64,000 nucleotides of DNA, taken from assembly GCA_041690395.1 (NCBI GenBank), contig JAWLHJ010000002.1, positions 596,751-660,750 on the forward strand, given 5' to 3'. This DNA is from Longimicrobiales bacterium. GTDB lineage: Bacteria > Gemmatimonadota > Gemmatimonadetes > Longimicrobiales > Gaopeijiaceae. The translations under genes and the position numbers were made by a program. Positions within the stretch are counted from its first letter, which is position 1. Each line of letters starts with the position of its first letter. The notes under the pieces are model-generated. The model was not told where the DNA came from and made no database searches. It was given only the letters and a program-made list of their open reading frames with translations. Positions 32,193 through 36,304 of this stretch are shown one piece after another.

Positions 32193-33392
32193 TCAGCGGC
32201 CCGGCGTGACCCCGGACGGCACAGCACAGTTCGAGACGGCCGCGATCTCGGCCTCGGTGCCGGGGAAGTACTTCCGCCGCCACCAGAGCGCGACGTTCAC
32301 GAGCCCGATGAGCACGGGCACCTCCACGAGCGGGCCGATCACGGCCGCGAACGCCGCCCCGTGCGCGATCCCGAACGTGCCCACGGCCACCGCGATGGCG
32401 AGCTCGAAGTTGTTCGACGCGGCCGTGAAGGACAGCGTGGCCGTCTTCGGGTAGTCGGCGCCCGCCCAGCGGCTCATGAAGAACGTGATCGCGAACATCG
32501 CCAGGAAGTAGATCAGGAGCGGGACGGCGACACGGACCACGTCCAGCGGTCGGGCGACGATCGCCTCGCCCTGGATGGAGAACATGACGACGATCGTGAA
32601 CAGGAGCGCCACGAGCGTCAGCGGGCTGATCCTCGGAATGAAGCGCTCGTGGTACCAGGCCTTCCCTTTCGCCTTCACGAGGACGAACCGCGTGAGCATC
32701 CCGGCCAGGAACGGGATCCCGAGGTAGATGAACACGCTCTCGGCGATCTGGCCCATGGTGATGGCGACCACCGTCCCCTCGAGCCCCAGCCACCCCGGCA
32801 CGACCGTGATGAAGAGCCAGGCGTACACGGAGTAGAAGAACACCTGGAAGATCGAGTTGAAGGCCACGAGCCCCGCAGCGTACTCGTTGTCCCCGTCCGC
32901 GAGCTCGTTCCAGACGATGACCATCGCGATGCAGCGGGCGAGTCCGATCAGGATGAGTCCCACCATGAGCTCGGGATGGTCCCGCAGGAACGCGACCGCG
33001 AGACCGAACATGAGCAGCGGCCCGATGATCCAGTTCTGGACGAGCGACAGGCCCAGGATCTTCCAGTCGCGGAAGACGTCGCCCAACTCCTCGTACCGCA
33101 CCTTGGCGAGCGGCGGGTACATCATGAGGATGAGCCCGATGGCGATGGGGATCGACGTGGTCCCGACGTGCGTCGCCTCGTTCAGCGCCGTGATCGGCTC
33201 GGGCCACACGAAGCCGAGCGCGACACCGAACACCATGGCAGCGCCGATCCAGAGCGTCAGGTAGCGGTCGAGGAGGGACATCCGGCGGGCCACACCCTGG
33301 CTCCCCGCCGCGCGCTGGCTCCCGCCTACGCCCCGGCCCTCCGCCACACTCCGGTCTTCCGCCGCGCCTCGCTCCCTGTTCCGACTCATCAT
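32193..33392 (-). CDS. acr3: Arsenite efflux transporter, Acr3 family
   Basis: [33 protein letters not shown] (conserved Cys), [18 protein letters not shown]. Confidence 0.96.
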
Positions 33393-35164
33393 GTCCTCGC
33401 CGCGTCCGGTTCTCGCATCATGCGCTCCAGACCCTCACGCCCGACGGGCTCTCGTTCCAGGCGTGGCACCAGGTAGACGCGGTCCGACAGCTGCACTACG
33501 ACCTTTTCGATCTGTTCCACTTCCGCCTCGGCCCGGCGGACCAACAGCGGATCGGTGGGGTGAGCCGCCGCCAGGCTGTTGTTGACGACCCACGCGTAGG
33601 GCTCGATCCCGGCGCGGCGCAGGTCCTCGGCGAGGGCGGACGCTTCGAGCACCGGGGTGGTCTCCGGAAGCGTCACGATGATGATCCGCGTGTAGTCCGG
33701 GTCCCGGAGCCGCATGAGCGGAGTGGTCACCGCCCCGCCCAGGCCTTCGGTGTTGCGGAGGACTTCGCGGTGGTACGAGCCCGCCGAGTCGAGGAGCAGG
33801 AGCGTGTGGCCCGTCGGCGCCGTGTCCATGATGACCAACTCCCGGCGCGCGCCCGCCACGATCCGCGAGAAGGCGTGGAAGACCGCCACTTCCTCGGTGC
33901 AGGGCGACCGGAGATCCTCCTCCAGGAGCGCCCGACCTTCCTCGTCCAGCTTACGTCCGGAGCGCTCGAGGATCTTCTTCCGATAGGCCGCTACCTCGGC
34001 CTCTGGATCGATGCGGCTGATCCGCAGACGCCCCGCGTCCTCGCCGACGACGTCCGCGACGTGCGCGGCCGGATCCGTGGTGGTGAGGTGCACGTCGGAC
34101 CCGCGGGCGGCGATCTCCATGGCGAGGGCGGCGGCGACCGAGGTCTTCCCGACGCCTCCCTTCCCCATGACCATGACCAGGCCATGCGCCTGGCCCGCCA
34201 GCTCGTCCGCCAACCGTTCCAGGCGCTGCACATCGTCCGGGATCTCCACGGCCCCGGCCCCGGATGCCCCGACGGAATCCGGCTCGTCGGACAGGAGGGC
34301 CCGCGCCGCCTCCAGTCCCACGATATTCCGGCTCTTCAGCGGAACGAGTGTCCTCGGGAGATCGCGGAGGGGCTCCGGAAGCGTGGACAGGATCTCGCGC
34401 GCGCCGCCCTCGAGGGCGACCGCCAGGGCGTCCCTGTGGTCCGTGGCCTCGAACACGCCGTTCACCAGCAGATGCTGATTCCCGAGACCGACCCCGCGGA
34501 GCTCTCCGCTGGACCGCGCCGCTTCCGCCACCGCTCCCCGCTCCGGCCGCGTGACGAGTAGCAGCAGCGTACACGCCGGATCGGACAGGGCGCGCACCGT
34601 GGCCGCATACCGCTCGTGCTGCATCTTGAGCCCCGACGAGGGTCCGAGGCACGACGCGCCGCGCTCGTTCGCATCCAGGAAGTCGTTCCAGGCGGCCGGA
34701 AGGCGCAGCAGGCGAATGGTGTGGCCGGTGGGCGCGGTATCGAAGACGACGTGATCGTATTCCGCGGCCGGCCCGTCGTCGCCGAGAAGCATGGTGAACT
34801 CGTCGAACGCGGCGACTTCCACGGTGCAGGCGCCCGACAGCTGCTCTTCGATGCCGTCGACCGCGTCGTCGGGGAGCACGCCTCGGTACGGCTCGAGCAC
34901 GCGCTCCCGGTAGGCCTCCGCCGCGGCCTCGGGATCGATGTTCAGCGCCGCCAATCGCTCCACCCCCGGTACGGGGGTCGGCGTGCGGCCGAGGGTCACC
35001 CCGAGGACCGCGTCCAGATTCGAGGCGGGGTCGGTGCTCACCAACAGCACGCGGCTACCGCCATCGGCCAGCGTTACCGCGGCCGCGGTGGCCAGCGACG
35101 TCTTGCCGACGCCGCCCTTGCCGGTGAAGAAGAGGTGGCGAGGCGCTTCGCTCAGCCAGCTCAC
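33389..35164 (-). CDS. arsA: Arsenical pump-driving ATPase
   Basis: Two GKGGVGKT P-loops, two DTAPTGHT motifs, metalloid-site Cys in SGACT, ASCLG and SPCTEE. Confidence 0.96.
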
Positions 35165-35934
35165 TTCGACGCCTCCTTCGCGCTCACCGGCGTACCGCCC
35201 GTCTCGAGGTACTCCGCGAAGTCGTCCGGGAGGTCGCTGCCACGGATGGCGGCGGCGGCCCGGGCGACGTCGTACTCGACACGAGGGAAGCCGACGTCCA
35301 CCTCGTCCCCGCTCATGTCGACGACGGCATAGCCCGCCCGCCAGTCCCCGTCCTTCGGACGCCCGACGGACCCGGTGTTCACGAAGTGGATTCCACCCAC
35401 GTCGCGGTGCCAGGGCTTGTGCGTATGCCCGAACGCGATCACGTCACCCGCCCTGGCGCCCATCTGCGCGGCCATCCTGGAGCAGAAGTCATCGGACCGG
35501 TCCTCCGTCCAGTAGACGGTGTTCAGCACGGGATTGCCGTGCACGAGCATGAGCCGGGGACCGGACGCGTGCCCACCCCGCGGCCGGATGTCGATGCGGA
35601 ACGGGAGGGCGCCGAGCCACCGCTTCGTCTCCCGGGAGACGTTCGCGCGCGTCCACTCGTAGCTAAGGTGGCTGAGGGCCTCCTGCCGCGGGTCCTCGTA
35701 CTTGCACCCGCAGTGCCTGTAGTCCGTCGCCGTCGTGGAGTCGTAGTTCCCGGCCACCCCGGGGATCGCTCGCTCGCGAAGGACGGCGACTACCTCGTTC
35801 GGCCACGGCGCGTACCCGACGAGGTCTCCGAGATGATAGACGGCGTCGAGGTCCGACCGGTCGTCGATGACGGAGAGCACGGCCTCGAGCGCCGGCAGGT
35901 TTCCGTGGATGTCGCTGATGAGGGCGTAGCGCAT
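35161..35934 (-). CDS. Calcineurin-like metallophosphoesterase within the ars operon
   Basis: SDIHGN, LGDLVGY, GNYD, VHG, FGHTH, NTGSVGRPKDGD; extra HCGC motif. Confidence 0.92.
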   Translation of the reverse strand: MRYALISDIHGNLPALEAVLSVIDDRSDLDAVYHLGDLVGYAPWPNEVVAVLRERAIPGVAGNYDSTTATDYRHCGCKYEDPRQEALSHLSYEWTRANVSRETKRWLGALPFRIDIRPRGGHASGPRLMLVHGNPVLNTVYWTEDRSDDFCSRMAAQMGARAGDVIAFGHTHKPWHRDVGGIHFVNTGSVGRPKDGDWRAGYAVVDMSGDEVDVGFPRVEYDVARAAAAIRGSDLPDDFAEYLETGGTPVSAKEASK

Positions 35935-36269
35935 CAGTCGCAGCAGACCCCGTCGCGGCGCGCGTGCGGCTCCCAGGCCCCACTCGACTCCACATCGGCC
36001 AGGACCATCCGCATCTCCTCGAGCGCCTCGGGCACGAGCCGGTAGTAGACCCAGCGTCCCTCGCGGCGGTCCGCGACCACGCCGGCATCCTTCAGCTTGC
36101 GGAGGTGGAACGAGAGGCGGGACTGCGCGGCGCCGAGCTCGTCCTGCAGCTCACACACGCACATCTCACCCGGGGATAGCAGGCGGACGATACGGAGCCG
36201 GGTCTCCTCGGCGACCGCCTGGAAGCGTTGGAGGGCGACCGCGTCGGGTAGGGGCGTTTCAGTAGCCAT
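35934..36269 (-). CDS. arsR: ArsR family As(III)-responsive repressor
   Basis: EMCVCEL, QSRLSFHL, REGRWVYY, C-terminal VCCD. Confidence 0.95.
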   Translation of the reverse strand: MATETPLPDAVALQRFQAVAEETRLRIVRLLSPGEMCVCELQDELGAAQSRLSFHLRKLKDAGVVADRREGRWVYYRLVPEALEEMRMVLADVESSGAWEPHARRDGVCCD

Positions 36270-36274
36270 GCCGG

Positions 36275-36304
36275 ACGATACATCAACGAGTGTTGATACG
36301 TCAA
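36275..36304 (-). promoter_or_regulatory. ars promoter with ArsR operator
   Basis: TTGACG-N18-TATCGT; the spacer holds the inverted repeat ATCAAC-N4-GTTGAT (36282-36297). Confidence 0.7.

Follow-up and report, generated by a model that had tools for sequence, protein, structure and literature searches.

A predicted Car1-type arsenate reductase in an arsD-less arsA–acr3 operon of a Longimicrobiales bacterium

What does a metallophosphoesterase (MPE) do in an arsenic operon that carries neither arsC nor arsD? The question is raised by four overlapping open reading frames (ORFs) on the minus strand of Longimicrobiales bacterium DNA, which encode, in this order, the repressor ArsR, the MPE, the pump ATPase ArsA and the permease Acr3. 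They lie in a stretch of 64,000 nucleotides (assembly GCA_041690395.1, contig JAWLHJ010000002.1, positions 596,751 to 660,750), here called the window, to which coordinates given without a locus label refer. An earlier note on this DNA had presented the MPE as an unknown new component of arsenic resistance, and had considered for it the roles of an As(III) chaperone replacing ArsD, a non-canonical arsenate-processing enzyme and a hydrolase. Sequence comparison favours the second role: the locus is, with high confidence, an arsenic-resistance operon whose MPE is predicted to be a Car1-type enzyme likely reducing arsenate to arsenite, with Acr3 exporting the product, probably helped by ArsA. Because the MPE is close to Car1, it likely supplies the seemingly missing reductase, and the operon appears mostly ordinary; it closes an apparent gap, the absence of an arsenate reductase, and opens none.

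The metallophosphoesterase and Car1

The MPE gene (35161-35934, minus strand) encodes a protein of 257 aa that belongs to the calcineurin-like families PF12850/PF00149. Its motifs are D8xH10, GD37LVG, GN63YD, H132 and GH170TH172, accompanied by the cysteines Cys75, Cys77 and Cys151. The protein aligns over its full length (263 columns, 44% identity, E 1e-71) with P0517, entered at NCBI as 'arsenate reductase Car1 [Rufibacter tibetensis]' and obtained by a homologue search starting from an Adhaeribacter protein; when Car1 is used as the query, the MPE is the single match in the genome. Identical positions are D8, H10, N12, D37, N63, Y64, D65, H132, Y141, H170 and H172, so that all seven two-metal ligands (D8, H10, D37, N63, H132, H170 and H172) and the GNYD motif are shared, and Cys75-Gly-Cys77 aligns gap-free on Cys74-Gly-Cys76 of Car1. 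An excerpt of PMC12124457, citing Shen et al. 2024 (Mol Microbiol 122:201), describes Car1 of R. tibetensis as an arsenate reductase of the MPE fold in which Cys74 and Cys76 are essential. The claim that this fold is without precedent among characterised Ars proteins therefore fails, as does that of an unknown new component, given the end-to-end match, and a non-canonical arsenate-processing enzyme becomes the best-supported reading, through the Car1 match and the CxC.

The two proteins also share the ars-operon context of their family. The window MPE differs from Car1 in an extra cysteine, Cys151 (Phe in Car1), in Arg192 (Lys in Car1), in its coupling to arsA and in its position on a separate tree branch. 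Among the curated profiles, Car1 itself matches only generic phosphoesterase models; since no curated profile flags it, surveys that count arsC miss arsenate reducers. In a sample of the phylum, the two enzymes occur at similar frequency (Car1 type in 26 and thioredoxin-type ArsC in 30 of 101 genomes) and largely alternate.

The AlphaFold model of the MPE (predicted local distance difference test score, pLDDT, 95) finds its best structural matches in 3RQZ, SapH and 1NNW. Against SapH/Spr1479 (PDB 3QFM), 3RQZ (Sphaerobacter) and 1NNW/2GJU (Pyrococcus), template modelling (TM) scores range from 0.69 to 0.81 at 23-31% identity. All share the calcineurin-like fold with the window protein, which differs from 3RQZ, 1NNW and 2GJU in its CxC, absent from these three aligned structures. 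Such neighbours suggest another role, that of a hydrolase of arsenylated nucleotides, stress nucleotides or Ap4A-like substrates, or of an enzyme for organoarsenicals, for example MAs(V); either would work alongside ArsC and not in its stead. The nearest solved folds are indeed phosphoesterases, including the Ap4A hydrolase SapH (TM 0.77, 23% identity), and the two-metal site is intact; however, a hydrolase would not need the invariant CxC, and Car1, a characterised homologue sharing this CxC, is a reductase. This role appears unlikely, and further evidence on it comes from the gene neighbourhoods described below.

If the MPE acts as a Car1-type reductase, arsenate would bind at the two-metal site and be attacked by Cys75; Cys77 would then release As(III), and the disulfide formed between Cys75 and Cys77 would be recycled by thioredoxin. 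The Car1 study is said to have described a cysteine-pair reduction mechanism with thioredoxin coupling. A thioredoxin system is present in the genome, with two trxA genes and one trxB gene above cut-off. The As(III) would be exported by Acr3, probably aided by ArsA, which would take it up without a chaperone.

Conservation of the cysteines was followed in several sets. The CxC is found in 80/80 GTDB loci (L001-L080, the best 80 of 491), a count that is biased because these loci were collected partly with a CGC-bearing pattern. It is also found in 119/119 close homologues, in 120/120 Bacteroidota-type homologues and in all 26 MPE loci recovered by a whole-protein search of the phylum sample. 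Its frequency drops with distance, from 9/9 representatives above 50% identity to 8/42 below 40%, as scored on those 102 of the 150 representatives whose match spans 200 positions or more. With ars genes in 70 of the 80 GTDB loci (65 when arsR is excluded) and near 25 of the 26 MPE loci of the phylum sample, and with the CxC invariant in close relatives, the earlier view, that the MPE is dedicated to arsenic resistance and that its cysteines are conserved, is upheld.

The third cysteine (DFCS), to which the note had also drawn attention, is present as Cys151 and kept in the protein's own clade (77/80 GTDB loci, 119/119 close homologues). It is confined to that clade and absent from Car1, and was rejected as a family-wide ligand, as 0/120 Bacteroidota-type homologues carry it. 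Tyr64 was likewise rejected as an arsenic-specific mark, because 28 of the 102 near-full-length representatives have it without a CxC. Selenocysteine was also considered and rejected: five homologues of the phylum that had been flagged for internal stops all read CGC, and the only tblastn stop falls near position 251.

Two loci show other arrangements. A cyanobacterial homologue (L097:4001-4810) carries the CxC (GCWD...CDC) among genes for GTP-binding proteins and hisI, with no ars genes, so CxC-bearing MPEs occur outside ars operons too. A Bacteroidota ars operon (L095:5001-6512) contains a tandem MPE pair, the second copy of which reads GNHD and is without the CGC loop.

Relation to ArsC

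The ars genes accompanying the MPE in the 80 GTDB loci are acr3 (42), arsM (33), arsN2 (16), aquaporin (12), arsA (11), arsD (11) and thioredoxin-type arsC (11). If the MPE stands in for ArsC, the two would be expected to alternate, and to some extent they do. Among 41 acr3-positive genomes of the phylum, 2 have both, 12 only the MPE, 14 only ArsC and 13 neither (Fisher p 0.04), and in two families (f4 and f5, 70 genomes) the corresponding numbers are 4, 21, 22 and 23 (p 0.009).

Several observations weigh against this assignment. The exclusion is incomplete, with 26 of the 101 phylum genomes carrying the MPE, 30 thioredoxin-type ArsC and 4 both (p 0.08), and these tests overstate the case because related genomes do not count as independent observations and the subsets were selected once the data had been seen; ArsC, moreover, was sought with one query that itself lies under the NCBIfam cut-off. 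ArsC and the MPE occur together in 11 of the 80 loci, and two of these, L033 and L067, have in-frame fusions of the pair; such coexistence is a hint that the two roles differ somewhat. A Rubrobacter plasmid carries two arsC genes adjoining the MPE. The genome of the window also encodes a stand-alone glutaredoxin-type ArsC/Spx-like protein with a CxxC (G000:C5:16830-17165; 104.6 or 103.8 bits against the TIGR00014 cut-off of 106.05), which could be an alternative source of reductase activity.

The phylogeny adds to these points. In a tree of 80 rows, left after 10 fragmentary or long-branch rows had been removed from 90, and with the bootstrap not fully settled, the query clade (7 rows, support 99/99) and the Car1 clade (11 rows, 99/91) are each recovered, and no supported branch unites them. 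The CxC does not define one clade, as 12 changes are needed on the tree. Three of 59 CxC-less representatives outscore the query MPE against Car1, so similarity alone is not diagnostic. A union of the query and Car1 clades was not rejected by the approximately unbiased (AU) test (p 0.86).

Some of the same neighbourhoods speak for a hydrolase or an organoarsenical enzyme. Coexistence and fusion with ArsC and the frequent arsM and arsN2 neighbours would suit such a protein. In the ars cluster of Deinococcus indicus, an MPE gene stands next to two ArsC genes, and an excerpt of PMC9807832 calls its function unknown. On the other side, ArsC and the MPE tend toward mutual exclusion, which speaks against such a role.

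The two fusions (L033:4375-6768 and L067:5332-6780) join a thioredoxin-type ArsC to the MPE and would thus place two presumed arsenate reductases in each chain. Another protein, P0046 (416 aa), combines MPE and GNAT domains.

The description as lacking arsC and arsD stands for the operon itself. The operon is without arsC, a search of the genome yielded no arsD, and the genome's three LMWP-fold genes score as tyrosine phosphatases, not as ArsC; the genome does, however, hold the sub-cut-off ArsC-like gene mentioned above. Of the associations that the earlier note proposed to count, the one with ars loci is seen, and the anticorrelation with arsC is partial. For arsD no anticorrelation appeared.

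Relation to ArsD

ArsD (PF06953) was not found in the genome, which is 98.3% complete, and the protein in the corresponding slot has the MPE fold. An assembly artefact was considered as the cause and rejected: contigs from two further soil studies (X1 record 7, with about 93% identity, and X4 record 31) likewise span the MPE-arsA junction without arsD. The MPE might then replace ArsD, binding As(III) through Cys75, Cys77 and Cys151 and passing it, perhaps as the product of its own reaction, to ArsA. The 4-nt overlap of the MPE gene with arsA in a genome where arsD was not found would fit such a role, as would the retention of Cys151 in the protein's own clade and its lack in Car1. The distribution of the genes points the other way. 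In the GTDB set, arsD is present in 10 of the 11 MPE loci with arsA, the exception having a truncated arsA, and 69 of the 80 MPE loci have no visible arsA at all. Cys151 is retained, moreover, in relatives without a nearby arsA. Within the 101 phylum genomes, arsA occurs in 4, and the three besides the window genome all have arsD, two of them with the MPE adjoining.

The same picture comes from metagenomic arsA loci, of which 80 were collected and 63 have at least 700 bp upstream. An ArsD match was found in 30 of the 63 with five ArsD seeds, which may miss distant ArsD; the 33 loci without a match have no MPE, and both loci with an MPE have arsD. The upstream ORFs look unrelated by eye. The MPE is thus not a stand-in for ArsD, because it co-occurs with arsD instead of excluding it, and arsA without an adjoining arsD is common. 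Of the roles considered, ArsD replacement is the unlikeliest, and the anticorrelation for which the earlier note had proposed a check failed to appear.

Several loci indicate how the gene order of the window may have arisen. The arsD gene lies directly between the MPE gene and arsA in L014, L023, L066 and L111; apart from this arsD, the genes of L014 are ordered as in the window. Probably, arsD was lost from an ancestral arsR-MPE-arsD-arsA-acr3 unit. A variant of the Car1 reading would have the three-cysteine enzyme hold its As(III) product on Cys75, Cys77 and Cys151 and hand it to ArsA, uniting reductase and chaperone in one protein and permitting both the deletion of arsD and the coupling to arsA; this is very unlikely. 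A complex prediction for ArsA and the MPE scored 0.00 (mark 0.32) and was used neither for nor against.

The pump, the control region and related operons

The arsA gene (33389-35164, minus strand) encodes a tandem two-domain arsenical pump ATPase of 591 aa (TIGR04291, 778 bits, cut-off 650), and acr3 (32193-33392, minus strand) an arsenite efflux permease of 399 aa (TIGR00832, 449 bits, cut-off 282.8), the sole acr3 found in the genome. ArsB (PF02040) was not found in this 98.3% complete genome. Residues C113, C172, C422, H148, H453 and S420 of ArsA, which we take to have a role in metalloid binding, are conserved as in E. coli R773 ArsA (alignment to 1F48) and are invariant across 57 aligned rows. 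The operon thus resembles E. coli R773 arsRDABC in its ArsR control and in a tandem ArsA with identical cysteines and histidines, and differs from it in having no arsD, Acr3 for ArsB and a predicted Car1-type enzyme for ArsC. The pairing of ArsA with Acr3 instead of ArsB, stressed by the earlier note, is real, and is shared with operons already catalogued: an excerpt of PMC2963123 lists 23 instances in 20 bacteria without ArsB, cites a study in which co-expression of ArsA and Acr3 increased resistance, and reports that the ArsA and Acr3 trees did not reveal co-evolution. The window operon offers a compact natural test case of ArsA with Acr3 and no ArsD.

Among the closest described relatives are operons of Paraclostridium and Terrisporobacter. 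According to an excerpt of PMC12124457, a Paraclostridium strain with arsR-orf1-acr3-arsM, where orf1 codes for a Car1 homologue (about 40% identity), methylates As(V); a Paraclostridium plasmid with this gene order has its CGC at 74/76, aligned to 75/77 of the window protein. Like the window operon, these operons place a CxC MPE next to arsR and acr3, and their authors take it to be the As(V) reductase. They include arsM, whereas the window genome has its arsM elsewhere and arsA in the operon. An MPE gene is also present in an ars operon of Mucilaginibacter (PMC10652896). What is new here is a small remainder, namely the clade-specific Cys151 and an MPE gene coupled to arsA with no arsD in the operon.

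The proposed translational coupling of the four genes at 1-4 nt was borne out by the ORF coordinates and by reading the junctions: arsR and the MPE gene overlap by 1 nt (TGATG), the MPE gene and arsA by 4 nt (GTGA), and arsA and acr3 by 4 nt (ATGA), or by 1 nt if acr3 starts at its second ATG. The arsR gene (35934-36269, minus strand) encodes a repressor of 111 aa (NF033788, 102.7 bits, cut-off 55) with a CxC in helix 3 and a CC pair at the C-terminus. It is preceded by a sigma70-like promoter (36275-36304, minus strand; -35 TTGACG, 18-nt spacer, -10 TATCGT), the only such site between 31700 and 36600, where shuffled sequences have 0.2 on average; the scan of the locus that gave this promoter found no terminator-like sites. 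The mRNA is probably leaderless, because the ATG of arsR begins only 5 nt past the -10 hexamer.

Between the -35 and -10 elements lies the palindrome ATCAA-N6-TTGAT (36282-36297), a likely ArsR operator judging by its sequence and position, which we presume to resemble known ArsR operators. ArsR would sit on it and be released upon binding As(III). The exact palindrome occurs once in the window, against 0 in 100 shuffles, and once in the 4.33 Mb genome. It is present in 63/208 loci and in 41 of the 80 GTDB loci; of the 62 sites in the latter set, 55 lie at the start of arsR or just past its end. Two copies, one before and one just after arsR, occur in L009, L011, L015, L023, L026 and others, which suggests a second internal promoter in those relatives; the window operon has only the first copy, before arsR.

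Within the genus, the window Acr3 shares 89% identity with that of another genome (G001), against only 55% for ArsA, which suggests independent movement of arsA. In that genome (L100), arsR-arsM-MPE-acr3 is convergent with a separate arsR-arsD-arsA unit; L003 is laid out similarly, in two units. In a further genome of the genus (G004, L099), the flanks keep synteny with the window at about 85% identity, but arsA-acr3 has been lost and, across a deletion, the 5' half of arsR runs into the MPE gene at about codon 23, making this a decaying copy of the window operon.

Finally, the arsM gene of the window genome (G000:C1:155335-156807; L209:3336-4808, minus strand; NF008823, 309 versus 263 bits) stands alone; it follows a gene for a MarR-type regulator that has a CC pair, and is without the ArsR palindrome. 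It is a second, separately regulated arsenic unit.

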